Assembly (NCBI GenBank): GCA_000990355.1
Contig: LBSX01000008.1
Location: 40,316 to 104,315 of the forward strand
Reading direction: 5' to 3'
DNA length: 64,000 bases
Origin: Candidatus Magasanikbacteria bacterium GW2011_GWC2_37_14
Lineage (GTDB): Bacteria > Patescibacteriota > Patescibacteriia > Magasanikbacterales > UBA922
Shown here: positions 14,685-39,909 of the stretch, one piece after another
Position numbering within the stretch: position 1 is the stretch's first letter
How the letters are laid out: every line of letters begins with the position of its first letter
Notes under the pieces: generated by a model
Told to the model about the DNA's origin: nothing
What the model saw: only the letters and a program-made list of their open reading frames with translations
Database searches by the model: none
Position numbers and translations under genes: made by a program

Positions 14685-16469
14685 ATGAAAAATAAAAGTT
14701 TTCTAGGTTTTAGTTTAATAGAAGTCATGGTAGGCGTGGCTGTTTTTTCGTTAATCTTTGTGGGTATTTATTCGGGAGTGCAGTTAGTTTTTAAAGTTGT
14801 TTATCAATCACGTTTGCGAATTTTGGAAACTGGAGTATTAAATGAACAAGTAGAAATAATTCGTAATCTTCCTTTTGCTGATGTGGGTATTGTAAATGGT
14901 AGTCCAAGTGGGGTATTGGTGCGTACTGTTACAAGTACGCGCAATAATATTGATTTTTTGGTTACGCGTACAATTCGCAATATTGATGATTCTTTTGATG
15001 GATTAATTGGTGGAGTACCAAATGATACAGCACCAGCGGATTATAAATTAGTAGAAGTAGAAGTAACTTGTCCAAGTTGTGGACAAAGAGAACCAGCAAG
15101 ACTTTCTACTTATATTGCTCCAAAAAATTTAGAAGGTAATTTAAATCACGGAGCTTTGTTTGTAGAAGTCTTTGATTCCGAAGCTGAGCCCGTGCAAGGA
15201 GCTACAGTGCACATTGTGGCCACCTCTACCAATCCTCAATTAGATATGACCGATGTTACTGATAACGAAGGAATGCTCCGAATTGTAGATTTGGCTACAG
15301 GCACTGCTGCTTATGCAATTACTGTAAGCAAGGATGGTTATACTAGTGAACAAACAATGTTGCCAAGTGTTAGTGTGCCTAATCCAGTTAAATTGCCAAT
15401 TTCTGTAGCTGTCCAAATAGTAACAGAAATTAGTTTTTCTATTGATTTGGTTTCTTCATTGCAAATTCAAACTTTAAATAGTGTTTGTAGTGCTCTGGGC
15501 AGTGTGGGTTTAAGTGTTCTTGGCACCAAAGTAATTGGCATTGAACCAGACGTTTTAAAGGTTAATCAAAATATTACTACCAATGGTTCGGGAATTTATA
15601 ACTTAACAAATCTGGAATGGGACAATTATGGTTTAAAGCCTAGTGCTTATGATTTGGTTGGTTCTATTCCAGCCACACCAATAAATTTGTCCGCTGGAGT
15701 AGATCAACCAGTACAATTAATATTGGGGGCCAACACAGCCAATTCACTATTGGTGCAAGTAAAAGACAGTGTAACCGATCAGCCAGTTTCTGGTGCTCAG
15801 GTAAAAATTAGTAAAACTGGTTATGAACAAACAAAAATTACTGGTGTGGGTTATGTTCGTCAAACAGATTGGTCGGGTGGTACTGGTCAATTAAACATGA
15901 GTGACGAATCAAAATATTGGTCTGATGATGGAAAATTAGAAATTAATAGTCCGGCAGGTGATTTAAAACTTAGAGAATTAGGACAGTCCTATGTTTCGAG
16001 TGGTTATCTTGAATCATCTATTTTTGATTTGGGTACATTGGTAAATTTTGTGGATTTAATTTTTGAACCCTTGTCCCAACCAGCAGAAACTGGGGCAGAT
16101 TCTTTACATTTTCAAGTGGCAGTAAGTACTACTTCTACCCCCGTAAGCTGGAATTATCTTGGGCCAGATAATACTTCGGCTACTTATTATAATTCTACAA
16201 ATTATTCTTTAAATAATTTGCCAAACAACCAGCGTTATTTTCGTTATAAAGTATTTTTGCAAACTGTCGATAATAACTATACACCAATTCTTTCTGATTT
16301 AAATATTACTTATATTACTGCCTGCACTCCGCCTGGCCAAACTTATTTTGGTAATTTGTTGGCCGAAACTTATACGGTAGAAGTTAGCGCTAATGGTTAT
16401 CAAACAACTACCCAAACAGTAACTTTGAGTGGAGATGTAATTATGGGTATAGAATTAGCTGCTTCTTAA
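14685..16469 (+). CDS. Large type IV pilin-like protein (prepilin N-terminal cleavage/methylation motif)
   Basis: N-terminus KSFLGFSLIEVMVGVAV (G/FSLIE class III signal). The rest is beta-rich, probably adhesin or carboxypeptidase-regulatory-like. Confidence 0.65.
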   Translation: MKNKSFLGFSLIEVMVGVAVFSLIFVGIYSGVQLVFKVVYQSRLRILETGVLNEQVEIIRNLPFADVGIVNGSPSGVLVRTVTSTRNNIDFLVTRTIRNIDDSFDGLIGGVPNDTAPADYKLVEVEVTCPSCGQREPARLSTYIAPKNLEGNLNHGALFVEVFDSEAEPVQGATVHIVATSTNPQLDMTDVTDNEGMLRIVDLATGTAAYAITVSKDGYTSEQTMLPSVSVPNPVKLPISVAVQIVTEISFSIDLVSSLQIQTLNSVCSALGSVGLSVLGTKVIGIEPDVLKVNQNITTNGSGIYNLTNLEWDNYGLKPSAYDLVGSIPATPINLSAGVDQPVQLILGANTANSLLVQVKDSVTDQPVSGAQVKISKTGYEQTKITGVGYVRQTDWSGGTGQLNMSDESKYWSDDGKLEINSPAGDLKLRELGQSYVSSGYLESSIFDLGTLVNFVDLIFEPLSQPAETGADSLHFQVAVSTTSTPVSWNYLGPDNTSATYYNSTNYSLNNLPNNQRYFRYKVFLQTVDNNYTPILSDLNITYITACTPPGQTYFGNLLAETYTVEVSANGYQTTTQTVTLSGDVIMGIELAAS

Positions 16470-16518
16470 TTTTTATCCCCCTCTTCCCAAGAGAGGGCAG
16501 GGGGAGTTGCCGAAGCTT

Positions 16519-17160
16519 ATGATTAAAATAAAAAATAAAAAAGGCCTTGCCCTGTATCGTTCTGGTTCAGGGTTTACACTTCTAGAATTACTTGTTGCTA
16601 TGGGAATTTTTACTTTAATTTCCGGAGCTGTAACTTATTTAATTACCGATGGTTTGCGTTATAGTCGAATTATTTGGGACCAACTAGAAGGACAAAGTGA
16701 AGTGCGTAAAGTTTTGTCCGAAGTAGTAAATGATGTGCGCCGGGCCGAAACTTCTTCTACCGGCGCTTACCCAATAGAAAGTGCTTCCAAATATAGTTTG
16801 GTTTTTTATGCCAATATAGATGTCGACAGTTTTAGAGAAAAAGTACGTTATTATTTAGAAGGTACAAATTTAAAAAAAGGCGTAACCAAACCGAGTGGCA
16901 GCCCATTGATTTATAATTCGGGCAATGAAAAAATTGTGATTTTGGCACATAATGTCATAAATATTTCTAAAAATCAGCCAGTGTTTAGTTTTTATGCCGA
17001 AAGTTATCAAGGTACTGGTAATGCTTTGAGCGAACCAATCACCACTACAGACGTGCATGTAGTGCGAGTGCAATTAGAAATTGAACGTGATGCCAACAAA
17101 AGTCCAGTGCCAATTCGTGGTGAATCACTTACTCAAATTAGAAATTTAAAAACGAATTGA
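16519..17160 (+). CDS. Type IV pilin / pseudopilin-like protein
   Basis: N-terminus GSGFTLLELLVAMGIF (prepilin peptidase site). Start set to the ATG at 16519. Confidence 0.65.
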   Translation: MIKIKNKKGLALYRSGSGFTLLELLVAMGIFTLISGAVTYLITDGLRYSRIIWDQLEGQSEVRKVLSEVVNDVRRAETSSTGAYPIESASKYSLVFYANIDVDSFREKVRYYLEGTNLKKGVTKPSGSPLIYNSGNEKIVILAHNVINISKNQPVFSFYAESYQGTGNALSEPITTTDVHVVRVQLEIERDANKSPVPIRGESLTQIRNLKTN

Positions 17161-17161
17161 T

Positions 17162-18493
17162 ATGAAACAAAAGCGTGGCAGCATTTTAATGTTTAGTTTG
17201 GTGTTTGGTGCAATTGCCAGCTTAATTTTGATTACCGGTGTGGGTAGTTATGCTTTGTTTGAAAATAAAGCTTCCAATAAAAAATTAGATCGTGATTTAG
17301 CTTTTCATATTGCCGAAGCAGGAATTAATTATTATCGTTGGCATTTGGCGCATAACCAAACCGATTATACCGATGGTACAGGCCAGGCTGGTCCTTATGT
17401 ACATGAGTATAATGACATGAATGGAAATTTAATTGGTTATTTTTCTTTGGCTATTACTCCTCCGCTGGCTGGTAGCACAGTGGTAAAAGTAGAATCAACA
17501 GGTTGGGCTTTGACCTCACCAAATTCTCAACGCACAATTCGGATTCGTATGGGTGCTCCTTCGGTTACCAATTATACCTTTTTGTCTCATGCTGGGTTAT
17601 CTTTTAGTTTTACTACTGTGGTTCATGGGCAAGTACATGCCAATGGTGAAATTCGTTTTGACGCCGAAACTGATTCTTGGGTTAAGAGTGGTATAAGAGT
17701 ACAAGGTGGTGGACATCCAAAATCTTTTTGGGTTTATCCTGTTCCCACCATTGATTTTTACTCTGTAACTTCTGATTTAAAAGCAATCAAAGATTTGTCC
17801 GATGCCGGAGGAATTCATTTAACTTCTTCGGGAAAAGAAGGCTACCAAATAGTTTTTAATGGTAGTTCTTTTGCTTTGTATAAAGTAAATACCAAAGATT
17901 GCTATAATGGTGAAGGTCGTTGGCGCAAACGTTGGGGTGATTGGTATTGGGAAGGCACTACTTATTGTTTTGATGTAGGTACACACAGTTTTGTAAATAA
18001 TTATAATATACCGTCCAATGGAGCAATTTTTGTAGAAGATAATGTGTGGGTAGAGGGTACTGTAGATGGGCGAGTAACAATTGGTGTGGGTAAATTCCCA
18101 GTAAAATCTCCTTATAAAAATATTATTATTAATAATAATTTACGTTATACGGCGCAAGGAGGAGATGATGTAATTGGCTTAATGTCTCAGGGAGATATTG
18201 TAGTGCCTTTTGAAGTGCCAGATAACATGTATATTGACGCAGCTTTGCTTTCGCAATTTGGAAAAAATTACCGGCCATATTATGATGAAAATTTAAAAAC
18301 CAGTTTAACAATCAATGGTTCGCAAATGGCTTATGAGGGTGGTGGTTGGAAATATGTAAATGGTCTTGGCCATGTTATTTCTGGTTTTCATGATACTTAT
18401 CATAATTACGATGGTAATTTGCGTTATTACCCACCACCCGGGTTTCCCGTCGGCACCACTTATGAATTAATTAGTTGGGAAGAAGTGGAGTAG
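17162..18493 (+). CDS. PilX-like minor pilin / pilus assembly protein
   Basis: N-terminal KQKRGSILMFSLVFGAIASLILITGV hydrophobic segment typical of the PilX N-terminus. Translationally coupled to the upstream pilin gene. Confidence 0.5.
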   Translation: MKQKRGSILMFSLVFGAIASLILITGVGSYALFENKASNKKLDRDLAFHIAEAGINYYRWHLAHNQTDYTDGTGQAGPYVHEYNDMNGNLIGYFSLAITPPLAGSTVVKVESTGWALTSPNSQRTIRIRMGAPSVTNYTFLSHAGLSFSFTTVVHGQVHANGEIRFDAETDSWVKSGIRVQGGGHPKSFWVYPVPTIDFYSVTSDLKAIKDLSDAGGIHLTSSGKEGYQIVFNGSSFALYKVNTKDCYNGEGRWRKRWGDWYWEGTTYCFDVGTHSFVNNYNIPSNGAIFVEDNVWVEGTVDGRVTIGVGKFPVKSPYKNIIINNNLRYTAQGGDDVIGLMSQGDIVVPFEVPDNMYIDAALLSQFGKNYRPYYDENLKTSLTINGSQMAYEGGGWKYVNGLGHVISGFHDTYHNYDGNLRYYPPPGFPVGTTYELISWEEVE

Positions 18494-18530
18494 GCAGTTA
18501 ACAGTTACCAGATAGCAGATATCATTGTGT

Positions 18531-18899
18531 ATGAATGATGATGTGTATTTTAAAAAATTAAAGTTAAAAATCCATGCTTTTGTTTTGCTAACCTATAATA
18601 TCACCAATGATTTTCCAAGGTCAGAACTTTATGGAACTGTTTCACAATTAAGGAGGGCGGCTGTTTCCGTGATGTTAAATTTAGTGGAAGGTTTTGGAAG
18701 AAGGAAAGAAAAAGTAAAATTAAATTTCTTTGAAATATCATATGGTTCGGCAAGAGAGTGTAAATATTTAATATTTTTGGCTTTGGAGAAAAAATGGATT
18801 GATAAACAGGCATATGAAAAGATTTTTGTTTTGCTAGATGAAATATCAGCTATGTTATGGAGTATGATTGTTGGTTTGGAAAAAAATATTGAGGAATAA
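18531..18899 (+). CDS. Four-helix-bundle protein (TIGR02436 family, also known as the 23S rRNA intervening-sequence protein)
   Basis: Family signature SQLRRAAVSVMLNLVEGFGRR ... SARECKYLIFLALE. Start set to the ATG at 18531. The gene is bracketed by roughly 30-nt inverted repeats. Confidence 0.75.
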   Translation: MNDDVYFKKLKLKIHAFVLLTYNITNDFPRSELYGTVSQLRRAAVSVMLNLVEGFGRRKEKVKLNFFEISYGSARECKYLIFLALEKKWIDKQAYEKIFVLLDEISAMLWSMIVGLEKNIEE

Positions 18900-18976: not shown

Positions 18977-19837
18977 ATGAAAAATTCGACAGTTGTTCGT
19001 AAAGGAGTAATCGTGGCCGCGGGTTTGGGTACTCGTTTTTTGCCAGCCACCAAAGCCGTACCAAAAGAATTATTACCAGTTTTAGACAAACCAGTTATTC
19101 AGTATTTGGTAGAAGAAATGGCAAATAGTGGTATTACGGAAATTATTTTGGTAATTAACAAACAAAAAACTGCGATTATTGAACATTTTAAACGCGATAA
19201 AAATTTGGAAAATTTATTAAAAAAAGCTAATAAATATTCAGCCATTGAACCGCTGGTAAATTTAATTAAAAAAGTTAAATTTACTTATGTTTACCAAAAT
19301 CAACCTTTGGGTAATGGTCAGGCCTTGCTTTGTGCCAAAAAAGCTGTGGGCAATGTTCCTTTTGCTTTTTCTGATGGTGATTCAATAATTGATAGTGAAG
19401 AACCAGCCATTGGTCAGGTAATTAAAGCTTTTAAAAAAGTAAATAGTTCTATAATCGGCGTACAAAAAATAAAAGATAAACAAGCCATGACCAAGTATGG
19501 GAATGTTTATGTAGAGACGCATAATAATGCGTCTGTACCAAAAGTCTATAAAGTCCAAAAGATTGTGGAAAAACCAAGTGTTGCTGATGTGTCACCCGAG
19601 GGCTTAATTATTGGTGGAATGCGTTACGTGTTTACTTCAGAAATTTGGTCATATTTAGAAAAAACCAAAAAAGGTAAAGGTGGAGAAATTTGGGTGGCCG
19701 ATGCGGCCAATGATTTGGCCAAGCAAGGAAATTTTTTTGCTTATGAATATAAGGGCAAGTATTTTGATACTGGCAACAAAGAAGCCATGTTAAAAACTAC
19801 GGAACATTTTTATTTAAAACATTGTTATGAAAAGTAA
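18977..19837 (+). CDS. galU: UTP--glucose-1-phosphate uridylyltransferase
   Basis: N-terminal AAGLGTRFLPATKAVPKELLPV nucleotidyltransferase motif. Confidence 0.88.
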   Translation: MKNSTVVRKGVIVAAGLGTRFLPATKAVPKELLPVLDKPVIQYLVEEMANSGITEIILVINKQKTAIIEHFKRDKNLENLLKKANKYSAIEPLVNLIKKVKFTYVYQNQPLGNGQALLCAKKAVGNVPFAFSDGDSIIDSEEPAIGQVIKAFKKVNSSIIGVQKIKDKQAMTKYGNVYVETHNNASVPKVYKVQKIVEKPSVADVSPEGLIIGGMRYVFTSEIWSYLEKTKKGKGGEIWVADAANDLAKQGNFFAYEYKGKYFDTGNKEAMLKTTEHFYLKHCYEK

Positions 19838-20543
19838 ATTAATAGTTTTTTTAGCAATTTTGGCTTGGTTTTTACCCAGCAGTGTTTTGGCTAGCACTTT
19901 TTATTGTGCTTGCAAAGATGCCGAAACTGCTTATCGTCCTTGTAAAACTTTAACTGCTACTACTTTGGCTGGTGCAGAATTGGAATGTAAAGGCATGGAA
20001 GGGAATTTAGGTTGTGATGCTACTGGAGTGAGTTACCCAGACGGAGCTACTTGTCAGGAAATTAATGAGGGATATCAGGATTTTATTAATATGGTTGTTG
20101 GGGCAAATTATCCTACGCCCAAAGAATGTAAAAGTGGTGAACAACAACAGACCTGGAAGCAGTGCATTCTTGATGCACTTAAAGAGGCTGGTAAAAGTAC
20201 ATTAAGTGCTATAGATGTAGAAAATTGTACAGGGTTGTCTTGTTATGAAGCGCCAGTAGATAGTCCAGTGGTTGGTTTAGAAGGAAAAATAAAAGATTTA
20301 AATCAAATTGGCACTACTGATGCCAATAAAATGATTGGCCGGATTATTAAAGCTATAATGGGTTTAATGGGTACTGTGTCTTTGATTTTATTTGTTTATG
20401 GTGGAGTGTTGTGGATGACTGCAGCCGGGAATAGTGAACGCGCTGGTGAAGCTAGGAAAATACTTATTTGGACTTCTTTGGGTATGATGGTGATTTTGGG
20501 AAGTTATGGAATAGTAGATTTTATATTCAAAGCTTTCGAATAA
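19827..20543 (+). CDS. Secreted Cys-rich protein with a C-terminal TrbC/VirB2-like (T4SS-type pilin) two-helix hydrophobic domain; paralog 1 of 11
   Basis: Signal peptide, then about 130 aa with 12 Cys, then the conserved domain IGRIIKAIMGLMGTVSLILFVYGGVLWMTAAGNSERAGEARKILIWTSLGMMVILGSYGIVDFI. Confidence 0.6.
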   Translation: MKSKLIVFLAILAWFLPSSVLASTFYCACKDAETAYRPCKTLTATTLAGAELECKGMEGNLGCDATGVSYPDGATCQEINEGYQDFINMVVGANYPTPKECKSGEQQQTWKQCILDALKEAGKSTLSAIDVENCTGLSCYEAPVDSPVVGLEGKIKDLNQIGTTDANKMIGRIIKAIMGLMGTVSLILFVYGGVLWMTAAGNSERAGEARKILIWTSLGMMVILGSYGIVDFIFKAFE

Positions 20544-20650
20544 TAAATTTACAATTTACATTTTCCAATTTACAATAAATTTTCAATTTTACAATTGTAA
20601 ATTGTTAATTTGTTGAAAATTGTGAATTGATAATTGAAAATTAAATTTTT

Positions 20651-22024
20651 ATGTATAGAAAATTAATCACTCTTTCACTCTCAGTACTCGTTTTGCTCGT
20701 ACTTGGTTTTGGTTGTAAAGGTCTAAGTGCCACCGAACAAGCAGCTATTAAGCCTGTGTCTTTGGATTACTGGACAGTTTACAATGATGTAGATACTTTA
20801 AATAAATTTGCCACAGAATTTAAGCAAAAATATCCTTATGTAACAATCAATATTCGCCAAGTGCGCGAAGACCAATTTGCTAGTCTACTAACCAATGCTT
20901 TGGCCGATGATGTAGCGCCAGATATTATTTCTATAAGTAATCGTGAATTGCGTAAATATCAAGATCGGCTTATAGAAATGCCCAAGAGTGCTAGTTTGTC
21001 TACTATTACAGTTACGGGTAAATATTTTAAAAATACAGTAATTGGGTCCGAGACCATTACTTTGCCGACTGCTTTGGGAATAAAAACCAGTTTTGTAGAT
21101 ACCGTATACAATGATGTAGTTTTGGCAGGGAAAATTTTTGCACTACCCTTGGCCGTAGATAATATGGCGATTTATTACAACAAAGATTTATTGGACAAAG
21201 CTGGTATTCCCGAACCACCCAAAACTTGGGATGAGTTTATGGAAGATGTTAAAAAAATAACGATTTTTAATAAAGATGGTAGTATTATTCAATCTGGGGT
21301 GGCACTTGGCACGGGCAATAATATTACTCGGGCTTTTGACATTTTGTCGCTCCTCATGATGCAAAGCGGGGTGGTAATGGCTCGGGGCCAGGCAGTTACT
21401 TTTGCCGACGGGGTAGAACAAGCTGGTGTGCGCCATCCAGCTTTGGCTGCTTTGCGTTTTTATACAGATTTTGCCAGAAGTGATAAAGAAGTTTATACTT
21501 GGAATGAAAAAATGAAAGGCGATTTGCAGAATTTTATTAGTGGCAAAAGCGCTTTTTATTTGGGTTTTGCTTATGATTACAAACGAATCAAAAACAGTGC
21601 TCCCCAATTAAATTTGGAAATTATTCCCATGTTGCAATTAAGTGAAAACAAGCCCGCCAATGTGGCTAATTATTGGCTAGAAGGGGTAACCAAAAAATCC
21701 CGGCACAAAAACGAAGCTTGGGGCTTTTTGGGTTTTATTACTACTCCCGAAAAAATTAAAGAATATACCAAAGCTGCTCGCTACCCTACACCTTTGCGGG
21801 CGCAAATAAACGAACAAAAAAAAGATCCTGTACTTAGCCCATTTGTGGCGCAAACTCTACAAGCCGAAAATTGGTATCGGGGCAAAGATGGCGCGGGAGT
21901 GGAAAAAGCTTTTAAAAGCTTAATTACTAATTATTTAAAACCTTATGCGAGTGAAGAAGAGGCTACTGCGCGTGATATTAATTTGTTAAAATATACTAGT
22001 GAATTAGTACAACAGACGATGTAG
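20651..22024 (+). CDS. ABC transporter extracellular solute-binding lipoprotein (family 1, sugar/maltodextrin-type)
   Basis: Lipobox LGFGC, and family-1 SBP architecture over 457 aa. Sits inside the pilin-like array. Confidence 0.7.
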   Translation: MYRKLITLSLSVLVLLVLGFGCKGLSATEQAAIKPVSLDYWTVYNDVDTLNKFATEFKQKYPYVTINIRQVREDQFASLLTNALADDVAPDIISISNRELRKYQDRLIEMPKSASLSTITVTGKYFKNTVIGSETITLPTALGIKTSFVDTVYNDVVLAGKIFALPLAVDNMAIYYNKDLLDKAGIPEPPKTWDEFMEDVKKITIFNKDGSIIQSGVALGTGNNITRAFDILSLLMMQSGVVMARGQAVTFADGVEQAGVRHPALAALRFYTDFARSDKEVYTWNEKMKGDLQNFISGKSAFYLGFAYDYKRIKNSAPQLNLEIIPMLQLSENKPANVANYWLEGVTKKSRHKNEAWGFLGFITTPEKIKEYTKAARYPTPLRAQINEQKKDPVLSPFVAQTLQAENWYRGKDGAGVEKAFKSLITNYLKPYASEEEATARDINLLKYTSELVQQTM

Positions 22025-22079
22025 TTGTTAGAGGAATTAGAGGTTTTAGTTATTAGTAAATGAATTAAAATTTAAAGAT

Positions 22080-23213
22080 ATGCCAAAAAATAAATTTCTC
22101 CTTATCTTTTCTATAATATTTTTAGTGAGTTTGTTTTTTGGTTTAAAAGAGGTTGAGGCAGTGGATTATCAATGCTGTGTGTTTACCCATGGCGGGATAT
22201 CGGAATGTGCTTTGGATGATCCTTGTCCAGCAACTAAACAAGTAGTTGTTGGTTCGGAAGAAACAGGTATGAGTGGTTATAAAACGGTTACAGAAAATGC
22301 CATTGGCAAAGCACAATCTTGTACTGATGTTGATATTTGTTTAAAACCAGCTTTTGAAGTAACTTGGACTGATGGACCAAAACAAGAGTTAACAGTAGGT
22401 GAAGTAATTAAAGCACAAACTGAAGCAAAAGTAATTTTTAGGCGTACAAGTCAACCAGTTGATGTTGTTTTGTCTTGTACTAATTGTGATGTGGAGGTGA
22501 CAACAGTTTTGGTTACTGGTAATATCATTCAGTTTACTTTGGATACAGGAAAATTTTTAAATAAGAATAAAGGTATAAACCCTTATTATGAAATAGTTGC
22601 CAAGTTAAATGATAAAGAATTAGGTAGACATACTTTAAATTTAGAATTAAAAAGGTTTGAATGTAAAAATTATAAACCACCTTGTACAGATAATTCGCAG
22701 TGTTTCCCTTTTGGGGCTGATTGCTTTTCTAAAATAGATGATACAATTTGCAGAAAATTGGACTCTCGACCAGATTTGTGTGGTCAGCAGGCAGATGGTC
22801 CTACTCTTGGTAGCACTGCTTGTTTTTGGGATGCTACGACAAAACAATGTAAAACTGGTATGGAAAAGGGTATTAGTAACAAGTATCCGGTGCCCGATGG
22901 TTATGCCGAGGGTGGCGGAGTTTTGCCTCCTTGTGCTTTTTCGGGATCTTGTCGTAAAGTAAATGATTTATTGGAATTAATTATAAATTTGGGTAGGGCA
23001 AATTTTGGTATTATTGGTACTTTTGCTTTTGTATTTTTTATTTATGGTGGTTTTACCATGATTACCTCTTTTGGCAGTGCCGAAAAAGTTAAAAAGGGCC
23101 GGGATATTTTGTTGGCAGCCGTGGTCGGTATGATTATTGCTTTTTCTGCTTATTTATTAATTAATTTTATAATAAGTGCTTTGGGAGTAGCAGATAGTTT
23201 TAAAGTAATATGA
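22080..23213 (+). CDS. Secreted Cys-rich protein with a C-terminal TrbC/VirB2-like domain; paralog 2
   Basis: Signal peptide, about 290 aa with more than 20 Cys, then GRANFGIIGTFAFVFFIYGGFTMITSFGSAEKVKKGRDILLAAVVGMIIAFSAYLLINFI. Confidence 0.6.
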   Translation: MPKNKFLLIFSIIFLVSLFFGLKEVEAVDYQCCVFTHGGISECALDDPCPATKQVVVGSEETGMSGYKTVTENAIGKAQSCTDVDICLKPAFEVTWTDGPKQELTVGEVIKAQTEAKVIFRRTSQPVDVVLSCTNCDVEVTTVLVTGNIIQFTLDTGKFLNKNKGINPYYEIVAKLNDKELGRHTLNLELKRFECKNYKPPCTDNSQCFPFGADCFSKIDDTICRKLDSRPDLCGQQADGPTLGSTACFWDATTKQCKTGMEKGISNKYPVPDGYAEGGGVLPPCAFSGSCRKVNDLLELIINLGRANFGIIGTFAFVFFIYGGFTMITSFGSAEKVKKGRDILLAAVVGMIIAFSAYLLINFIISALGVADSFKVI

Positions 23214-23845
23214 AAAAAATTATCCTAACAATTTTATTAGCAATAATTTTTTCTTTGCCAATGTGGATTGCCCCGGTTTTTGCTGTGGATGATCCTAGCA
23301 GTGAAACAGTTAAGTTGGATAATCCGTTGGGAGAGAGAAATGATATGCGGCAAATTTTGGGGCAGATTATTGATTATTCTATGGGTATTATGGGAGCGAT
23401 TACTCTCTTGGTTTTTGTGTTTGGGGGCGGTATGTGGCTAACTTCTATGGGTAATGCGGAAAAGGTAAAAACTGGCACTCAAGCCATGATTTGGGCAGCA
23501 ATTGGACTGTTTATTATTTTTGGCAGTTATGCTATACTGAACCTAGTAATAAAAGGTTTAACTGGTGGAGTTGCGAGTACTAGTTTACAAGTACCAAGCA
23601 GTGAAGAAAAAAATCCAGAAACTAGTTGTGTTTCTCCAAGTTTCTGTAACACGGCTGATAACTATTGTGGGTGTACAGCAGATTGTGCCAAAGACGATAA
23701 ACTTTGTTTTACCAATTGTGGAGAGATGTGCACAAATTTTTCTGGAGCGTGCGCTACAGATGAAGAAAAAAAGGGCTTGTTTGTAACTTGTGTGGTTGCC
23801 TCTGGTGGGGGAGAATTGGATTGCAAACAAACTATTTGTGAATAA
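23210..23845 (+). CDS. TrbC/VirB2-like domain protein with a C-terminal Cys-rich module; paralog 3, domain order inverted
   Basis: Signal peptide, then MRQILGQIIDYSMGIMGAITLLVFVFGGGMWLTSMGNAEKVKTGTQAMIWAAIGLFIIFGSYAILNLV, then an 80-aa tail with 14 Cys. Confidence 0.6.
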   Translation: MKKIILTILLAIIFSLPMWIAPVFAVDDPSSETVKLDNPLGERNDMRQILGQIIDYSMGIMGAITLLVFVFGGGMWLTSMGNAEKVKTGTQAMIWAAIGLFIIFGSYAILNLVIKGLTGGVASTSLQVPSSEEKNPETSCVSPSFCNTADNYCGCTADCAKDDKLCFTNCGEMCTNFSGACATDEEKKGLFVTCVVASGGGELDCKQTICE

Positions 23846-23912
23846 TAAAAGGTTTAACAGGTAAATAATTATTACGTATGAAGGTATTTCAACAAAGGAA
23901 GGGGGTGAAAAC

Positions 23913-24431
23913 ATGATTAAATTAATGAAAGCTTTAAATAATAAATTAGTAGTATTAGCTGTAGTAACTTTGGCTTTTGGTTTATTGCTTTTGCCAGGTT
24001 TAGCTTATGCAGAGATTGATGCTGCCTGTGCCGATGATACTGAATGTGACGCGGGTGAAATTTGTGGAGTAGATGAAACTTGCGTGGCCGACCCTTCTAC
24101 CTCAGGTTCAGACGCCAAAGACCCATTTGGAATAAATTATGGTGCTAAAACTGGTTTAGGTTCCAGAGATATTCGCGATACCATTGGTAGCATTATTAAT
24201 GTAGCTTTGGGTTTACTCGGCATTGTGGCCGTAGTAATCGTCTTGGCTGGTGGTTTTAAATGGATGACCTCTGGTGGTAATGAAGAAAAATCTACCGAAG
24301 CTCGCAAATTGATTTTTGCTGGTATTATTGGTTTGGCAATTATTTTGTCTGCCTATGCAATTTCTAGATTTGTCTTAACACAATTGTATACCGCAACAAG
24401 TACAAGTGGTACAGCTACCTATGGAGTATAA
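23913..24431 (+). CDS. TrbC/VirB2-like pilin-family protein; paralog 4
   Basis: Signal peptide, a short Cys/acidic segment, then IRDTIGSIINVALGLLGIVAVVIVLAGGFKWMTSGGNEEKSTEARKLIFAGIIGLAIILSAYAISRFV. Confidence 0.6.
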   Translation: MIKLMKALNNKLVVLAVVTLAFGLLLLPGLAYAEIDAACADDTECDAGEICGVDETCVADPSTSGSDAKDPFGINYGAKTGLGSRDIRDTIGSIINVALGLLGIVAVVIVLAGGFKWMTSGGNEEKSTEARKLIFAGIIGLAIILSAYAISRFVLTQLYTATSTSGTATYGV

Positions 24432-24559
24432 GTAGCATTTACATAGTCTCTTAAGTTAGGAGAAAATATAATGTTAACAAAAGGAATTATTACCCCCGAC
24501 AGATTGTCGGGGGTAATAATGGCCTTGATTGTAGGTTGTTATTTGTTATCAAGCTGTCA

Positions 24560-24645
24560 TTCCTTAGCGTCATTCCCGCGCAGGCGGGAATCTTACACTA
24601 GTTAAAAAGATTCCCGCCTGCGCGGGAATGACGCACGAAGAAAGG
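24560..24645. repeat. Family B palindromic repeat pair (GTCATTCCCGCGCAGGCGGGAAT ... ATTCCCGCCTGCGCGGGAATGACGC)
   Basis: Two inverted copies. Relatives occur at 4930, 8566, 11905, 52068 and 62226. Confidence 0.8.
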
Positions 24646-24693
24646 TGGCAATGACAAATTGATACTGAGTAATAAATTACAATAATTATATAT

Positions 24694-25095
24694 ATGAAAA
24701 AAGCATTTTTATTTTTAAGTCTAATGTTTGTTTTGTTATTTGGATTTTTTTGCACTTTTAAACCAGTTTTGGCACAAGGTCCTTATTTAGGTTTGGAATA
24801 TGGAGCCGACACTGGACTTTCTACCAAAGACATTCGTTTTACTACCGCCAGAATTATCAATACGGTGCTTGGCCTTTTGGGCATGGTTTCGGTAGTAATT
24901 ATTATTTATGCTGGTTTTAAATGGATGACTGCCGGTGGTAATGAAGAAAATGCCACTTCGGCCAGAAAAATTTTATTTTCGGCAGTAATCGGTTTGGTAA
25001 TAATTCTTAGTGCTTATTCTATTGCTCGTTATGTAAATACTAGTTTATACAAAGCGACTACTGGCTATGACTATGAGTCAATGATTATTGAATAG
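24694..25095 (+). CDS. TrbC/VirB2-like pilin-family protein; paralog 5
   Basis: IRFTTARIINTVLGLLGMVSVVIIIYAGFKWMTAGGNEENATSARKILFSAVIGLVIILSAYSIARYV. Confidence 0.6.
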   Translation: MKKAFLFLSLMFVLLFGFFCTFKPVLAQGPYLGLEYGADTGLSTKDIRFTTARIINTVLGLLGMVSVVIIIYAGFKWMTAGGNEENATSARKILFSAVIGLVIILSAYSIARYVNTSLYKATTGYDYESMIIE

Positions 25096-25100
25096 TATAT

Positions 25101-25622
25101 ATGAAAAAAATATTATTTTTATTAGTTGGTTTGGTAATAGTTTTTTCTCCAGTTTTGGCAATGGCGGAAGATTCTTATGGTTTGGAAACAACGGCTGGAG
25201 CTGCCAAATTAAAAAGTGATAAAGATTTGCCCACTTTGGTTGGTAATGTGGCTGGTACTGCACTTTCTTTGGTAGGTGTAATATTTTTTGCTTTAATGAT
25301 TTATGCTGGTTTTTTGTGGATGACTGCCCAAGGTAAAGAAGAACAAGCCAAAAAAGCTTTGGACACAATTATTGCCTGTATTATTGGTTTAATAATCATT
25401 TTGGCCGCTTATGCGATTACTAGATTTATTTTTAATAGTGCGGGGGTGGGAGGAAGTGGTACAGTGCCTCAAGAAAAACAGTGTGATGCTACATCTGTTG
25501 CTTCGTGTAAATCTAAACCTGAGAGTACTACAGCTTGTACTGAAACAGCAGGTGGGGTAACTACTAATGGGTTTTGTCATTTTGTAAACCCACAGTCAAA
25601 GAGTTGTAGTTGTGGAAATTAG
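25101..25622 (+). CDS. TrbC/VirB2-like pilin-family protein with a C-terminal Cys-rich tail; paralog 6
   Basis: Conserved domain LVGNVAGTALSLVGVIFFALMIYAGFLWMTAQGKEEQAKKALDTIIACIIGLIIILAAYAITRFI, then a 9-Cys tail. Confidence 0.6.
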   Translation: MKKILFLLVGLVIVFSPVLAMAEDSYGLETTAGAAKLKSDKDLPTLVGNVAGTALSLVGVIFFALMIYAGFLWMTAQGKEEQAKKALDTIIACIIGLIIILAAYAITRFIFNSAGVGGSGTVPQEKQCDATSVASCKSKPESTTACTETAGGVTTNGFCHFVNPQSKSCSCGN

Positions 25623-25632
25623 AATATTTATT

Positions 25633-26340
25633 ATGTTTTTTGGTTATAAAAAAATAATTTTAATTTTAGCAGTATTTTTGAATATATTTTTTTTTGGAAA
25701 CCAAGCTTTGGCAGCTTACACTTTTGATGACACTGGCCTGATGCTTGGTAAAGCCGCGGAGCCAACAGGAATGTTGGATACCAAAGTCACTGGGTCTTTG
25801 CCAGTAGTTTTGGGTTTTTGGGCCACAGTAGCATTTTCATTAGTAAGCATTGTCTTTTTTATTTTAATGTTTTATGCTGGTTTTTTGTGGATGACAGCGC
25901 GTGGTTCGGAAGAAGTGGTAACCAAAGCCAAGGGCATAATTACTATGGCCATAATTGGTTTGTTTGTACTCGTAGCCTCGTATGCAATTACCACCTTTAT
26001 TACTAGCAGTTTAGTTCCTGGTGTGGCTGGTAATAAAGCCGCTGGTACTGGTAATTTGGAAGTTGGGCCAAATAATCCCGAAGGTTGTTGTGTGGATTGG
26101 GTAGCCACCGATAGTCAGTGGTTTGGCGCAGTTGGTACCTTAAAAAAAGATAATGACGGTGGTTTTGTGGGAGTAAGTGCTTGCCGGATAACTACAAAGT
26201 CTGATTGTGAATTACAAGGTACAACAGAAACGGAAAGTGATGTGTTGGCTGGCCCCGAAGGTGTTGGTTATTGGGTATTTGATGAAGCTATAAAAGAAAA
26301 AGAGGCTTGTCAAAGTGCTTATTGTAAATTAGCAAATTAA
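25633..26340 (+). CDS. TrbC/VirB2-like pilin-family protein with a C-terminal Cys-rich domain; paralog 7
   Basis: Start moved to the ATG at 25633 because the track start is a GTG. Conserved domain, then a roughly 110-aa tail with 7 Cys. Confidence 0.55.
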   Translation: MFFGYKKIILILAVFLNIFFFGNQALAAYTFDDTGLMLGKAAEPTGMLDTKVTGSLPVVLGFWATVAFSLVSIVFFILMFYAGFLWMTARGSEEVVTKAKGIITMAIIGLFVLVASYAITTFITSSLVPGVAGNKAAGTGNLEVGPNNPEGCCVDWVATDSQWFGAVGTLKKDNDGGFVGVSACRITTKSDCELQGTTETESDVLAGPEGVGYWVFDEAIKEKEACQSAYCKLAN

Positions 26341-26349
26341 TAAAAAATT

Positions 26350-26715
26350 ATGAAAAAAATATTTATAACTCTGGCATTATTTACAATTTTGTTAACACCA
26401 GTTTTTGTTTTTTCTGCCAATACTGGTTTGGGTGCCTTAACAAAAAATTTAAGTGATACTGGCAAAGCCGCAGAAATAAGTGAAACTGGTACTTTGCAAG
26501 ATATTGTTGGTACAGGAATTGGAGCGGCCCTTACTTTGGTTGGATTAATTTTTATGATTTTAATGGTTTATGGTGGATATTTGTGGATGGTTGCGAGAGG
26601 TGCCGAAGAAATGATCACCAAGGCCAAGGGAATTATTACTGCTGCGATTATCGGTTTGGTAGTAGTAATTAGCGCCTATGCCATAACAGTATTTATTACA
26701 GGTAGGTTTCAGTAA
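26350..26715 (+). CDS. TrbC/VirB2-like pilin-family protein; paralog 8 (minimal form)
   Basis: Signal peptide plus a short linker plus the conserved domain only (121 aa). Confidence 0.6.
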   Translation: MKKIFITLALFTILLTPVFVFSANTGLGALTKNLSDTGKAAEISETGTLQDIVGTGIGAALTLVGLIFMILMVYGGYLWMVARGAEEMITKAKGIITAAIIGLVVVISAYAITVFITGRFQ

Positions 26716-26735
26716 TTAGTTTTATTTTAAATGAT

Positions 26736-27122
26736 ATGAATATAAAGAAAATAATTTTAATAGCCATCTTTAGTTTATTATTGTGTACCCCAGTATTGGC
26801 GAAATTAAATTTGGGCACAGGAATTGCTGGGCAGGCGGCGGTAAAAGCTGGTTATGAAGGAAATACTAGTGAAATAACTTTTTCGCAAAATATTGGTACA
26901 GTAATTAATGCCGCACTTTCGCTAGTGGGTGTAATATTTTTGGTTTTAATGGTTTATGCGGGATATTTGTGGATGACAGCACGTGGTTCGGAAGAAGAAA
27001 TTACCAAAGCCAAAGGAATTATTATTGCGGCCATGATTGGTTTAATTTTGGTGGTAGGTGCTTATAGTATTACTACTTTTGTGGTACCACGTATTTTGGC
27101 TAGTGGCGTCAAAACTCCCTAA
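26736..27122 (+). CDS. TrbC/VirB2-like pilin-family protein; paralog 9
   Basis: IGTVINAALSLVGVIFLVLMVYAGYLWMTARGSEEEITKAKGIIIAAMIGLILVVGAYSITTFV. About 75% identical to paralog 7 within this domain. Confidence 0.6.
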   Translation: MNIKKIILIAIFSLLLCTPVLAKLNLGTGIAGQAAVKAGYEGNTSEITFSQNIGTVINAALSLVGVIFLVLMVYAGYLWMTARGSEEEITKAKGIIIAAMIGLILVVGAYSITTFVVPRILASGVKTP

Positions 27123-27123
27123 T

Positions 27124-27531
27124 ATGAAAAAAATTGTTTTGTTAATAATTTTATTTGTTAGTCTAGGGTTATTCCCTTTGGCCTTGCAGGCTCAAGTAAA
27201 TAAAACTACGGGTGAAAAAATTATGGGGCAAGTAGGTGCTAGTGCCGAAAAGGCCGAAATTGGGGCGCCAGCAGATTTTAGAGTAGTTGTTACCAGAACC
27301 ATAAAAACTCTTCTTGAGACAGTTGGTGCAGTATTTATTATTTTAATAGTTTATGGCGGTTATACTTTTATTACTGCTGAGGGCGAAGAAGAAAAAGTAA
27401 CCAAAGGTTTAAATATAATCAAGCCAGCAATTATTGGTTTAATAATCATTTTGGCGGCTTATGGTATTACTTTGTATGTGGGCATACGGTTTACCCAAGC
27501 AGTAACTGAAGGGGCCACAATAATGCGTTAA
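27124..27531 (+). CDS. TrbC/VirB2-like pilin-family protein; paralog 10
   Basis: Start moved to the ATG at 27124 (MKKIVLLIIL). Conserved domain is present. Confidence 0.55.
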   Translation: MKKIVLLIILFVSLGLFPLALQAQVNKTTGEKIMGQVGASAEKAEIGAPADFRVVVTRTIKTLLETVGAVFIILIVYGGYTFITAEGEEEKVTKGLNIIKPAIIGLIIILAAYGITLYVGIRFTQAVTEGATIMR

Positions 27532-27536
27532 AATTT

Positions 27537-28046
27537 ATGAAAAAGTTCTTATATCTTATTTTGCTAGCCGTTTTTTTAAGTGGTTTATTTACTTTTGTCC
27601 AAGTTAAGGCAGCTGATTATCGTGCTGATACCATGAATCAACTTTCCGCTACCGCTGGTGCCAATGGAGCCAACTATGGCACAGCGCGTGATCCACGAGC
27701 AATTGTGGCCCAAGTAATAAAAATTTTTTTGGGTACAGTAGGAATATTGTTTGTGGCTTACACGGTTTATGCTGGGTTTATAATACTAACTTCTGGTGGT
27801 AATGAAGAAAAAGTTGGAAAAGCCAAAAAAATGATTTTTTATGCGACCATAGGTATTATAATTACTCTCTCTGCTTATGGGATAGTTTTGTTTGTACAAA
27901 GATATTTTGTAGGAGATACTGGCGGTTTAAATGGCAGTGCTAGTTATGGGCCGTGGTATGTAGAAGGAAGTTTAAACGTGGATGAGAGTAATAGTCAATT
28001 TTATTCTCCAGATCCCTTGGAACAAGATACACTTATTTATCACTAA
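27537..28046 (+). CDS. TrbC/VirB2-like pilin-family protein; paralog 11
   Basis: VAQVIKIFLGTVGILFVAYTVYAGFIILTSGGNEEKVGKAKKMIFYATIGIIITLSAYGIVLFV, followed by a terminator hairpin (catccgcctcatcggcggatg plus T-run). Confidence 0.6.
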   Translation: MKKFLYLILLAVFLSGLFTFVQVKAADYRADTMNQLSATAGANGANYGTARDPRAIVAQVIKIFLGTVGILFVAYTVYAGFIILTSGGNEEKVGKAKKMIFYATIGIIITLSAYGIVLFVQRYFVGDTGGLNGSASYGPWYVEGSLNVDESNSQFYSPDPLEQDTLIYH

Positions 28047-28107
28047 TAATAAAAATAAAACATCCGCCTCATCGGCGGATGTTTTTTAATTTCTAGAGAT
28101 ACAAAGG

Positions 28108-29231: not shown

Positions 29232-30182
29232 TTACTCATTCTTCTTGCCATGAAATTTTTTGTAAATATTTTTTAGTTCTTTGTCGGTAATGTGGGTATA
29301 AATTTGGGTGGTGGTAATTGAAGAATGGCCAAGCATAGTTTGTACACTGCGAATGTCGGCGCCATTTTGCAATAAATCTGTTGCATAAGAATGGCGTAAG
29401 GTATGTGGAGTAACCAGTTTGGTAATACCAGCAGCTTTGGCATATTTTTGTACCAAACGTTGCACCGAGCGAGTGGTTAAGGATTCATCTTTACTGTTTT
29501 TTTCTTTTTTACTTTTTAAATCATGACAAATAAATAAAAAAGGATTAAGATCCTTGCGAACTTCTAAATATTTTTTTAACCAATATTTAGCTTGGTCGGA
29601 CAAAAAGACTACACGGGATTTCCGGCCTTTACCGGTAACCGTAAATTCTTCGCGAGCAAGATTAATACTATCTTTCTTTAAATTAACTAATTCGGATACA
29701 CGGAGGCCAGTAGAGAATAGCATTTCCAAAATTGCTTTGTCACGGTATTTGATTAAGCCACTAGAATTTTCATTTAACTCTGCTTGTTTAAGTGGAGCTT
29801 CTAAAAGACGACTCAGGTCACTACCTTCCAAAAAAGAAACTTCACGGTCGGGCATTTTCATTAATTCTATTTTTTCGGCTGATAAAGTTTTTACATCACG
29901 TTTGGCTAAATATTTTAAAAAGGAGCGCAAGGCGATTAAATGATAATTTTGGGTGTTCTTTTTTAAAGGTTCACCATGAACATCTGCTAAGCGATTAAGC
30001 CACAAGCGAAATTGGCGAACTTTTTCGGCGTCAATATTTTCGGCTTTATTTTCTGGACCAAACCAAGTGGTAAACCTTTTTAAATAAAAATCATAATTGC
30101 GTAAAGTTTTATCACTACGGTTGCGTTCAATTTCCAGGTATTCTAAATATTCGATTAAGTATTTTGAAATATTTGTTGGCAT
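29232..30182 (-). CDS. Tyrosine site-specific recombinase, XerC/XerD family
   Basis: C-terminal catalytic motif HTLRHSYATDLLQNGADIRSVQTMLGHSSITTTQIYTHI (R-H-R-Y tetrad present) and an N-terminal core-binding domain. Start set to Met35 (MPTNISKY). Confidence 0.85.
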   Translation of the reverse strand: MPTNISKYLIEYLEYLEIERNRSDKTLRNYDFYLKRFTTWFGPENKAENIDAEKVRQFRLWLNRLADVHGEPLKKNTQNYHLIALRSFLKYLAKRDVKTLSAEKIELMKMPDREVSFLEGSDLSRLLEAPLKQAELNENSSGLIKYRDKAILEMLFSTGLRVSELVNLKKDSINLAREEFTVTGKGRKSRVVFLSDQAKYWLKKYLEVRKDLNPFLFICHDLKSKKEKNSKDESLTTRSVQRLVQKYAKAAGITKLVTPHTLRHSYATDLLQNGADIRSVQTMLGHSSITTTQIYTHITDKELKNIYKKFHGKKNE

Positions 30183-30660
30183 AGTAGTCTTTAAAATTTG
30201 CTTTATTATATTGTACGACACTATTGACCCTTCTGTCAAAATCAGGGTCAAGTTGAGCCGGGCCGAAACTTGACAAAAGGTCAATTTTGTGGTATACTAA
30301 ATACATAAAATTAACAAATATAAATTTTTTCATGCCAAAATCCTTAACAGTCGCAGATTGTTGGACATTTCAAAAATTTATATTTGTTAATTTAAAAATC
30401 ATGTAGAGCTTTTTGGGCCACGTGATAAGCAAAAACAAATACAAAAATAAATATGCAAAACCAAAATTGGGGAGCGGTCAACCCACAACAAGCCGCAGAT
30501 TCTTTGGTATATTATTATCTCTTGGCCGGTATCTCTGTTTTGGTAGCGGTTTTTTTGTTCCTACCAAAAAGTTCAACAGGGTGAAATAAAAGTACAATTT
30601 ATTTAGGAGGAAATTTTGCCACCTTGAAAGGGTGGCTTTTATGGCGTATAATATAATTAT

Positions 30661-39153: not shown

Positions 39154-39909
39154 ATGAATAATAAAATTGATAAAATATATTTTGATTTTGATAGCACCCT
39201 AATTAAGGCGGAAAGCTTGGATTTGTTGGGAATAAGGCGAGGGGTAGGAAAAAATGTTTCTGCTATGACAAAACGTTCAATGAACGGCGAAGTGGCATTC
39301 TCTGATATTTTTTTAGAAAAAATGCAATTAATTTCTCCGACAAAAAATGATCTCGATGTTGTAGCACAAGAGTGTGTTGGTTTGTTGGTAGCTGGTGTGC
39401 TGGAAACAATGAAATTATTGCGTGCTTTGGATAAGCAGGTATATATTCTGTCAGCTAATTTTTATCCAATGATTTTGCCGGTGGCGAAAAAACTTGGGTT
39501 AGACGAGAATAACATTATTGCCAATGAGATATTTTTTGATGGGGATGAAAATTTTTTGAATTTTAATACTAGTTCGTTGTTGGCTCAGGATTATGGCAAA
39601 GCAAGAGTGTTACAGCAAGAAAAACAAAAAGGTGGAAGATTAGCATTGGTAGGAGATAGTGTAGCCGACTTGGAGGCAGCAAGTGAGGTGGATGTTTTTG
39701 TTGGTTTTGGTGGAGTTGTACAACGAGAAAAAGTATTTAAGGAGTCAAAACATTTTGTTTCCTCACCATCATTATTGCCATCTTTAAATTTCTTGTTATC
39801 GGATGATGAGATAAATAAATTGAAAATTATTGGTTTTGAAAAAATAGTAAATGAAATTCAAAAATTGACTACCATTACTACAACCGGGACAGGGCCGGTT
39901 GCTTGGTAG
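39154..39909 (+). CDS. HAD-superfamily hydrolase (phosphoserine phosphatase-like)
   Basis: Motif I FDFDSTL and motif IV GDSVADLEA. The C-terminal tail runs into the GC-rich block. Confidence 0.7.
   Translation: MNNKIDKIYFDFDSTLIKAESLDLLGIRRGVGKNVSAMTKRSMNGEVAFSDIFLEKMQLISPTKNDLDVVAQECVGLLVAGVLETMKLLRALDKQVYILSANFYPMILPVAKKLGLDENNIIANEIFFDGDENFLNFNTSSLLAQDYGKARVLQQEKQKGGRLALVGDSVADLEAASEVDVFVGFGGVVQREKVFKESKHFVSSPSLLPSLNFLLSDDEINKLKIIGFEKIVNEIQKLTTITTTGTGPVAW

Follow-up and report, generated by a model that had tools for sequence, protein, structure and literature searches.

Dissimilar, fast-evolving modules at either end of a conserved VirB2-like hairpin in an old pilin gene array of Candidatus Magasanikbacteria

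Background

When one conserved domain occurs before a cysteine-rich module in some members of a gene array and after it in others, have the two domains been shuffled by recombination, or did the two orders arise in another way? The question is raised by an array of eleven pilin genes (P1 to P11) that occupies positions 19827-28046 of the + strand in a chromosomal region of Candidatus Magasanikbacteria bacterium GW2011_GWC2_37_14, a member of the Patescibacteria or Candidate Phyla Radiation (CPR). Positions are those of the window, i.e. the whole 64-kb stretch of DNA analysed here (contig LBSX01000008.1, 40,316 to 104,315). An earlier note, made from the sequence alone, had read part of this array as the outcome of domain-order shuffling among recently duplicated genes. 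Our analysis points to another explanation, which we consider probable: an old, decorated VirB2-like array in which mutually dissimilar and fast-changing heads sit on a conserved hairpin stalk, at either of its ends, and form a repertoire for surface display.

Patescibacteria, which live on the cells of their hosts in an attached state, account for a large part of the diversity of bacteria. A set of 441 patescibacterial VirB2 arrays, of 2-11 genes with low identity among paralogs and often located near dnaA, has been described (Quinonero-Coronel et al. 2025, PMC12102498). In Southlakia epibionticum, the one species tested genetically, an essential pilin array is located inside a type IV secretion system (T4SS) cluster (Wang et al. 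2023, PMC10633639).

Results and discussion

All eleven genes encode the same pilin hairpin

All 11 paralogs exceed the curated gathering score (26.6 bits) of the Pfam family PF18895 (T4SS_pilin, VirB2/TrbC-like), with 28.9-42.4 bits, and P5 falls just short of the cut-off of the TrbC family PF04956 (24.2 versus 27.9 bits). Each has a Sec-type signal peptide with a readable AxA-like cleavage site followed, according to hydropathy, by two long hydrophobic helices joined by a short charged loop, and these traits of PF18895 members are found both in the sequences and in AlphaFold2 models. The models of P3 and P2 predict an antiparallel hairpin with pLDDT (predicted local distance difference test) values of ~85-92 and helices of ~33-36 residues each, at residues 46-78 and 83-117 in P3 and at residues 294-329 and 334-368 in P2. 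No solved structure was detectably similar when the PDB was searched by sequence with the hairpin profile, which returned only spurious matches to designed repeat proteins, and Foldseek with the P3 model gave only non-significant helical hairpins, a conjugation pilin of Aeropyrum pernix ranking 9th (E 1.6).

The 78-residue hairpins of all 11 paralogs align without gaps, with invariant Gly, Glu and Tyr positions, at 22-62% identity, a hairpin-only range to be set beside the mean of 25% and maximum of 54% published for paralogs of such arrays. The highest values occur between neighbours (P4-P5 62%, P8-P9 59%, P7-P8 54%), and outside the signal peptide and the hairpin only P4 and P5 align. The earlier note had made its reading depend on the homology of hairpins located at the two ends of the proteins, and this homology holds: every hairpin pair is significant by BLASTP (for instance P1-P3 8e-20, P2-P3 3e-14 and P4-P6 4e-11), with E values of 1e-8 to 1e-20 between N-proximal and C-terminal hairpins.

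The hairpin family is large: at an E value of 0.001 or better it comprises 74,810 cluster representatives. Among relatives retrieved with the hairpin profile (P0050-P0199; e.g. P0050, P0061, P0062), the top scorers carry 2 to 17 hairpins per chain; P0050, with 6 hairpins and no internal signal peptides, is a true poly-hairpin protein, and P0099 and others resemble read-through fusions of neighbouring genes.

The appended modules are not one domain in two orders

Seven of the 11 paralogs carry an extra module, which precedes the hairpin in three of them (P1, P2 and P4) and follows it in the other four (P3, P6, P7 and P11). Residue positions bear out the earlier note on both orders: the hairpin is C-terminal in P1 (residues 159-236 of 238), P2 (290-367 of 377) and P4 (80-157 of 172), and it directly follows the signal peptide in P3 (39-116), P6 (36-113) and P7 (49-126), whose Cys-rich part is C-terminal. 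The description of paralogs 8-11 as hairpin-only is correct for P8-P10 but not for P11, which has a Cys-free tail conserved in orthologs, and P5 is bare as well. In each module that contains cysteines their number is even (Table 1), and in related C-terminal tails, among the 498 relatives surveyed below, it is even in 126 cases and odd in 3. Such counts fit disulfide-bonded extracytoplasmic domains, a reading that they suggest from sequence; disulfide oxidoreductases of the MdbA-like type are known to be enriched in genomes of the CPR (10.1101/335083).

One explanation of the two gene orders is that a hairpin and a Cys-rich domain were reordered by recombination among paralogs, in an array that grew by recent tandem duplication with gene conversion. 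Shuffled paralogs of this kind should have both parts homologous in both orders. This is found for the hairpin, which together with the greater likeness of neighbouring paralogs favours shuffling, but not for the Cys-rich part, since no similar pair of Cys-rich modules exists in the window. The modules of P1, P2, P3, P4, P6 and P7 are mutually dissimilar, with a best BLASTP E value of 0.035 (in a ten-sequence database and without composition correction); Smith-Waterman scores gave z <=2.4 against composition-preserving shuffles for every module pair within the window, and a Pfam scan detected no second domain in any of the extra modules. This lack of mutual similarity argues that the modules, as compared by sequence, are unrelated to one another or hyper-diverged, rather than a single domain permuted into two orders. 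A 26-nucleotide (nt) similarity between the region preceding the hairpin of P6 and that following the hairpin of P7 (repeat family D6) is weak and was judged to be due to chance. The earlier note had proposed that an anchor or polymerisation unit was recombined with different displayed ectodomains; the conserved unit, the different modules and the gain or loss of one of them (the P3 tail, see below) stand, while the shuffling of domain order falls with the dissimilarity of the modules.

Architecture is fixed by position in orthologous arrays

Four related loci (L003, L006, L001 and L005) are syntenic with the window. L003 (GCA_964531615.1) has an NTP-transferase gene, P1', a solute-binding protein (SBP) gene, P2'-P7' and P9'-P11', with the same architecture class at each position as in the window; L006 has P5'-P11', again with the same pattern of N-terminal, C-terminal or missing module at orthologous positions; L001 has the SBP gene and P2'-P5', and L005 the SBP gene and P2''-P4''. 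A counterpart of P8 is present in L006 and absent from L003. Between the window and L003 the protein identity of the neighbours is 65% for the SBP and 64% for the NTP-transferase, and that of the hairpins 53-87%. Because the same pattern recurs in L003 and L006 despite housekeeping neighbours that are only 64-65% identical, the array and its per-position architectures are ancient and have been kept among orthologous arrays, a result that also speaks against reordering by recombination. The comparison with orthologous CPR loci that the earlier note had suggested, in search of presence/absence polymorphism, revealed a fixed architecture, with the P3 tail (absent from L001) and P8 (absent from L003) as exceptions.

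Hairpins and modules have evolved at different rates. When the window is compared with L001 and L006, the hairpins display ratios of nonsynonymous to synonymous divergence (dN/dS) of 0.08-0.19 and are under strong purifying selection. The N-terminal modules of P2 and P4, in the same comparison, have a dN of ~0.5, and the P6 tail differs from that of L006 with a dN of 0.89 and 32% amino acid (aa) identity, next to a hairpin that is 87% identical and with a similar Cys spacing; the P7 tail is 82% identical in L006. Relative to L003, some modules are conserved (P2, 39% identity, z=65; P4, 52%, z=6.5; P7, 39%, z=23; P11, 64%, z=30) and those of P1, P3 and P6 are unrecognisable (z <=1.4). The modules thus evolve several-fold faster than the hairpins, and they change in three ways: by divergence in place on a mostly kept Cys spacing (P6), by replacement beyond recognition (P1, P3 and P6 versus L003) and by gain or loss (P3).

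The SBP_bac_1 gene is found just upstream of the P2 ortholog in four loci (the window; L001, 5-589; L003, 1958-3394; L005, 7223-8659), with 53-85% identity and without an adjoining transporter partner. The contigs of L004 and L005, two public metagenome-assembled sequences with orthologous arrays, are clearly patescibacterial in gene content, and their record titles ("uncultured Gammaproteobacteria bacterium") are probably mislabels.

A putative insertion footprint at the P3 tail

The clearest case of module gain or loss is at the P3 position, where the tail measures 0 aa in L001, 73 in L003, 85 in L002 (protein P0004), 97 in the window and ~380 in L005, on cores that stay similar (87% identity between the window and L001; 91% between P0004 and P0005, whose tails are barely alignable). 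In the window, the segment that encodes the whole Cys-rich tail and that is missing from the L001 ortholog lies between two copies of a 20-nt direct repeat (Table 1). The first copy encodes the end of the hairpin. The second, read in the frame of the hairpin, gives I-K-G-L-T-G-K-stop, the very C-terminus with which the L001 ortholog, devoid of a tail, ends, and in the frame of the tail its first TAA is the stop codon of P3. The 20-mer is absent elsewhere in the window (0.03 occurrences expected by chance) and in 85 loci, and a scan for boundary repeats in 164 tail-bearing genes found the window P3 as the sole footprint, the next best repeat being 16 nt and the control maximum 14 nt.

Copy 2 differs from the L001 terminus at five sites, all synonymous third positions, and from copy 1 at one. 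As it is closer to copy 1 than to L001, the duplication looks younger than the split from L001, as would be expected of an insertion into a bare terminus. In such an event a 276-nt tail segment would have entered at the P3 hairpin boundary with a 20-nt target duplication, displacing the old ...KGLTGK-stop terminus. The P3 tail is homologous to that of P0004 (z=7.3, 0/500 shuffles), the sole homologous tail found. There is no sign of an L002-like donor for a flank of the P3 tail, the hairpin being closest to L001 up to the junction (80% versus 68% nucleotide identity). The P3 footprint offers a concrete, testable example of head acquisition.

A repeat placed exactly at the boundary of a module also evokes programmed diversification, in which tails would be cassettes moved by site-specific recombination, mutagenised by a diversity-generating retroelement or exchanged with silent copies as in antigenic variation, with the help of a tyrosine recombinase (29232-30284, - strand) or of a bAvd-like gene (18525-18899). 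The recombinase is a XerC/D-type integrase encoded ~1.2 kb downstream of the array, genes of the bAvd type (23S_rRNA_IVP/bAvd-like) recur in and beside orthologous arrays, and some relatives have wholly different tails on hairpins that are 85-93% identical. Against this, the footprint occurs in only one of the 164 tail-bearing genes and its 20-mer nowhere else; BLAST of every module segment detected no template-like or silent module copy in the window (chance matches <=40 nt); neither a reverse transcriptase, among the ORFs (open reading frames) scanned, nor the pair of template and variable repeats typical of retroelement targets was found; and the integrase looks like an ordinary XerC/D protein, separated from the array by two tRNA genes and a Band_7 gene. 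We therefore regard programmed diversification as highly improbable. The bAvd-like genes, predicted to form four-helix bundles, occupy differing positions in or beside the orthologous arrays (L001, 3692-4060; L002, 197-583; L003, 1589-1957 and 7723-8112, besides the one in the window), as if independently inserted, and no reverse transcriptase or template repeat was found near them.

The copies in the window are old

The earlier note had also taken overlaps between adjacent genes as a sign of recent tandem duplication. Within 23210-26340 the sole true overlap is the ATGA at 23210-23213, in which the P2 stop meets the P3 start. The second one (25612/25622) rests on an unlikely GTG start at 25612, where the open frame of P7 begins; counted from its ATG, P7 starts 10 nt after the P6 stop. 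The ATGA overlap itself indicates translational coupling, as is usual in operons, rather than recent duplication, and it is not shared by orthologs, in which the corresponding gaps are 47 and 105 nt. Codon-aligned hairpins of the window reach at most 64% nucleotide identity, with 33-54% at third positions, and the longest exact runs between them (25-26 nt) fall on the most conserved motifs. The nucleotide alignment that had been proposed as a means of detecting conversion tracts yielded none that is significant in the window: in a run-length permutation test the smallest p value (0.0015) was lost on correction for 55 pairs, and a self-BLAST screen (>=85% identity over >=100 nt) retrieved zero pairs in the array. 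The window copies are old and contain no convincing conversion tracts, so the claim of recent tandem duplication is not upheld. The same screen detected 17 pairs with 85-99% identity across 14 related loci, one example being a duplicate of 1172 nt at 92% in L045; recent duplication or conversion in these relatives is a point in favour of shuffling.

Mixed decoration is a property of the family

The arrangement seen in the window was placed in a wider context by a survey of 80 metagenomic loci found with the P6-P9 hairpin, together with loci from protein look-ups, in which ORFs were searched with a hidden Markov model of the hairpin. With the window genes included it yielded 509 pilins, among which 498 are unique ORFs from outside the window. 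Of the latter, 273 are bare, 144 have a C-terminal module, 74 an N-terminal one and 7 both. N- and C-decorated genes are mixed in 29 of 72 arrays, so that mixed decoration is a family-wide trait and not peculiar to this window.

Modules on the two sides form almost separate pools: a match to another module of the same side exists for 39 of 84 N-side and 81 of 155 C-side modules, while only one of 84 N-side modules has a match on the C side. That single match is a 4-Cys unit of ~30 residues (WCLx5C..GGGPC..EEC), which 2 proteins carry on the N side and 5 on the C side, versus 0.1 and 0.25 expected from shuffles. Judged from these matches, transfer of a module from one end to the other does exist in the family, is rare and does not involve the genes of the window. 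Other recent switches are seen among relatives, as for a 334-aa Cys-rich tail that distinguishes L046 from L045 on a hairpin 93% identical to those of bare paralogs.

The 4-Cys unit speaks for reordering in the family. It has to be weighed against the near absence of N-to-C matches, the dissimilarity of the window modules, the divergence of their hairpins without tracts or long repeats and the positional conservation of the architecture, and on balance we find shuffling of a hairpin and a Cys-rich domain to be very unlikely as the origin of the array.

A probable repertoire of heads on a stalk that may form a pilus

Why both orders should be viable may be understood from the predicted fold. 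The ends of an antiparallel hairpin would lie side by side, as do the termini of VirB2-type pilins in solved conjugative pili, where the loop is turned towards the pilus lumen, so that a module on either terminus would be shown at the same place; module order in the sequence would then be topologically neutral, and neither order need derive from the other. On the explanation that we hold to be probable, the array would encode a set of variable heads for display at the surface, which would probably serve adhesion or host recognition. The heads would be mounted on a conserved stalk, either as part of a T4SS-type pilus into which the stalk polymerises or with the stalk as their membrane anchor. 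If a pilus is formed, the bare P5 and P8-P10 could be its bulk subunits and the decorated proteins minor ones.

The anchor version, carried further, does away with the pilus: the hairpin would be a two-pass membrane anchor with both ends outside, tethering small secreted disulfide-rich domains on a cell that has no outer membrane, while the bare paralogs, as small membrane proteins, would do something else. It agrees with the topology predicted from the signal peptide and hairpin, which puts both termini outside, with the absence of T4SS ATPase or channel genes in the window and near the related arrays sampled, and with the position of the array amid housekeeping genes, P1 being translationally coupled to a sugar-nucleotidyltransferase gene. 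It does not sit well with 78 residues kept at a dN/dS of ~0.1 with invariant Gly, Glu and Tyr, with helices whose 33-36 residues exceed what a bilayer needs, with four of 11 genes that have nothing to anchor or with the homology of the family to VirB2/TrbC pilins; moreover, the essential array of S. epibionticum is located within a T4SS cluster, and 1135 of 1948 assemblies have a pilin gene in the vicinity of virB4 (PMC12102498). We consider a mere anchor possible but rather unlikely; in our analysis the strength of hairpin conservation and the hairpin length, the existence of four bare paralogs and the essential S. epibionticum array embedded in a T4SS cluster would favour a pilus.

Several points weigh against the display repertoire or against its pilus version. 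The T4SS machinery expected alongside PF18895 pilins (VirB4, VirB6, VirB3 and others) was not detected among the ORFs scanned across the window, and neither was VirD4; a sample of 10 large ORFs situated up to 10 kb from related arrays contained no such genes either. Gene context thus lends no support to pilus assembly here. In no patescibacterium has a pilus built from these subunits yet been shown (PMC12857230), and steric constraints may prevent each subunit of a tightly packed, conjugative-type pilus from bearing a head of 100-380 aa. The adhesin role is a guess: the AlphaFold2 model of the P3 tail has a pLDDT below 50, and the P2 ectodomain, whose beta-sandwich is modelled at pLDDT 70-87, has only weak, generic Ig/PKD/cadherin-like matches (E >=0.01). 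The values of dS (0.7-2.5) are near saturation, so that selection above neutrality cannot be claimed for the modules, and only 20-26 nt are available to decide whether the P3 position underwent an insertion in the window or a precise deletion in L001.

A bolder version would see in the VirB2-type hairpin of CPR bacteria a general display scaffold whose two neighbouring ends both take on foreign disulfide-rich heads, with combinatorial and quickly renewed host-recognition heads on or at the tip of a T4SS pilus in a bacterium that lacks an outer membrane, the heads being gained as short cassettes at the hairpin boundary, as in P3; these could arrive by homology-facilitated illegitimate recombination of DNA taken up from relatives. 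We put it forward tentatively and think it unlikely in this full form. If most of the variation does reside in appended disulfide-rich heads while the stalk is strictly conserved, host range may be determined in part by such arrays, and the heads become targets for work on binding and host specificity. VirB2-type pilins would then include, besides bare subunits of ~70-120 residues, proteins that bear at either terminus a domain of as many as several hundred residues.

Type IV pilus genes also occur near arrays of these T4SS pilins, with an N_methyl pseudopilin-like region upstream in the window (14685-18493) and a PilB-type T2SSE ATPase gene ~5 kb downstream in L010 (15108-16868); this proximity may be a coincidence or a functional link.

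Relation to known systems

The array shares with the published patescibacterial VirB2 arrays its tandem PF18895 genes, the interruption by one non-pilin gene, the divergence of the paralogs, the vicinity of dnaA and the CPR host, and its 11 genes on one strand are at the top of the published range. It differs in having no T4SS machinery within 64 kb, and the members of the published arrays were described as small pilins. It fits the 2025 description, and its source genome may well be part of that data set. In the accessible literature we found no mention of N- or C-terminal Cys-rich heads, of conservation per position, of module turnover or of an insertion footprint; the arrays were thus already known, and it is the decoration and its turnover that are apparently new.

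Compared with the conjugative and T4SS pilins VirB2, TrbC, TraA and TrhA (F, T, RP4 and H pili), the proteins have in common a signal peptide, a helical hairpin with a charged loop and adjacent termini, and Pfam places PF18895 in the same superfamily. In TrhA a peptide bond links the two termini, with the loop pointing into the lumen (PMC12037004), and the termini of TrbC are likewise cyclised (PMC13434634). Conjugative pilins are of ~70-120 aa and have no extra domain, whereas the heads described here attain 262 aa in the window and ~380-470 aa in orthologs, in a host without an outer membrane. Divergent tandem paralogs are also shared with virB2 of Bartonella and Anaplasma, where they are thought to broaden the range of hosts or receptors or to evade recognition (PMC12102498), and with surface families that combine a conserved scaffold with hypervariable loops. 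In Bartonella and Anaplasma, however, the variation lies within the small pilin, whereas here it lies in appended disulfide-rich modules and the hairpin is conserved.

Gene layout and surroundings of the array

The array (Table 1) begins ~10 kb downstream of dnaA (9148-10527) and is interrupted by a single gene, that of the SBP. From P2 to P11 the intergenic distances are -4, 67, 262, 5, 10, 9, 20, 1 and 5 nt, a tight spacing that is operon-like. P1 overlaps the upstream sugar-nucleotidyltransferase gene (GalU-like NTP-transferase, 18977-19837) by 11 nt, and the L003 counterparts (107-982 and 979-1536) overlap by 4 nt; the first pilin thus appears, from its position, to be co-translated with a housekeeping gene in both. 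The surroundings are those of an ordinary chromosome, with genes for FtsK, RecA, DnaA, DnaN, trigger factor, the sugar-nucleotidyltransferase, a Band_7 protein, rRNA and tRNA, and they also include type IV pilus-like N_methyl genes and the XerC/D-type recombinase. P2 is 100% identical to US42_C0008G0060, a protein of Candidatus Magasanikbacteria. The G+C content of the window is 37%, and the only match in an Rfam scan of the array is the tRNA located after P11.

Table 1. Pilin genes and associated features of the array in the window
Feature	Positions	Strand	Hairpin (nt)	Description
P1	19827-20543	+	20301-20534	Signal peptide, N-terminal module with 10 Cys, C-terminal T4SS_pilin hairpin
SBP_bac_1	20651-22024	+		Solute-binding, lipoprotein-like; splits the array between P1 and P2
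P2	22080-23213	+	22947-23180	Signal peptide; N-terminal ectodomain of 262 aa and 18 Cys, in which Cys-rich segments follow a predicted beta-sandwich (residues 93-187); hairpin
P3	23210-23845	+	23324-23557	211 aa; signal peptide, hairpin, C-terminal tail of 92-97 aa with 12 Cys
Direct repeat, copy 1	23547-23566	+		TAATAAAAGGTTTAACTGGT; codes for ..V I K G L T G at the end of the hairpin
Insert-like segment	23567-23842	+		276 nt, exactly 92 codons; whole Cys-rich tail of P3, absent from L001 ortholog
Direct repeat, copy 2, and AAATAA	23843-23868	+		Repeat itself 23843-23862, 19/20 identical to copy 1
P4	23913-24431	+	24150-24383	Signal peptide, short N-terminal module with 4 Cys, hairpin
P5	24694-25095	+	24811-25044	Bare pilin
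P6	25101-25622	+	25206-25439	173 aa; hairpin, then 60-aa tail with 6 Cys
P7	25633-26340	+	25777-26010	235 aa from ATG; hairpin, then 109-aa tail with 6 Cys
P8	26350-26715	+	26473-26706	Bare pilin
P9	26736-27122	+	26859-27092	Bare pilin
P10	27124-27531	+	27256-27489	Bare pilin; ATG 1 nt past the P9 stop
P11	27537-28046	+	27672-27905	Hairpin, then 46-aa Cys-free tail
Terminator-like hairpin	28057-28085			3' of P11

The 262-nt gap between P4 and P5 contains a palindrome with a 16-bp stem (24486-24520) and two inverted copies of a 20-nt palindrome, ATTCCCGCSYRSGCGGGAAT, at 24572-24591 and 24610-24629. A third copy of the latter is found at 8611-8630, none being expected by chance, and the counterpart of the gap in L006 is ~100 nt shorter. 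These palindromes may represent a small mobile palindromic element or a regulatory hairpin.

Other features of the window

A 23S rRNA match at 48400-51687 extends over 3288 nt, versus 2925 positions in the model, and probably contains insertions; a 5S rRNA gene comes next, and a linked 16S rRNA gene was not detected within the window. Finally, two nearly full-length ORFs lie on opposite strands of the same segment (39903-41297, +, 464 aa; 39915-41279, -, 454 aa), which has a raised G+C content of 0.44 and no Pfam or Rfam match and is followed by a LAGLIDADG endonuclease ORF (41476-42144) and a tRNA gene.

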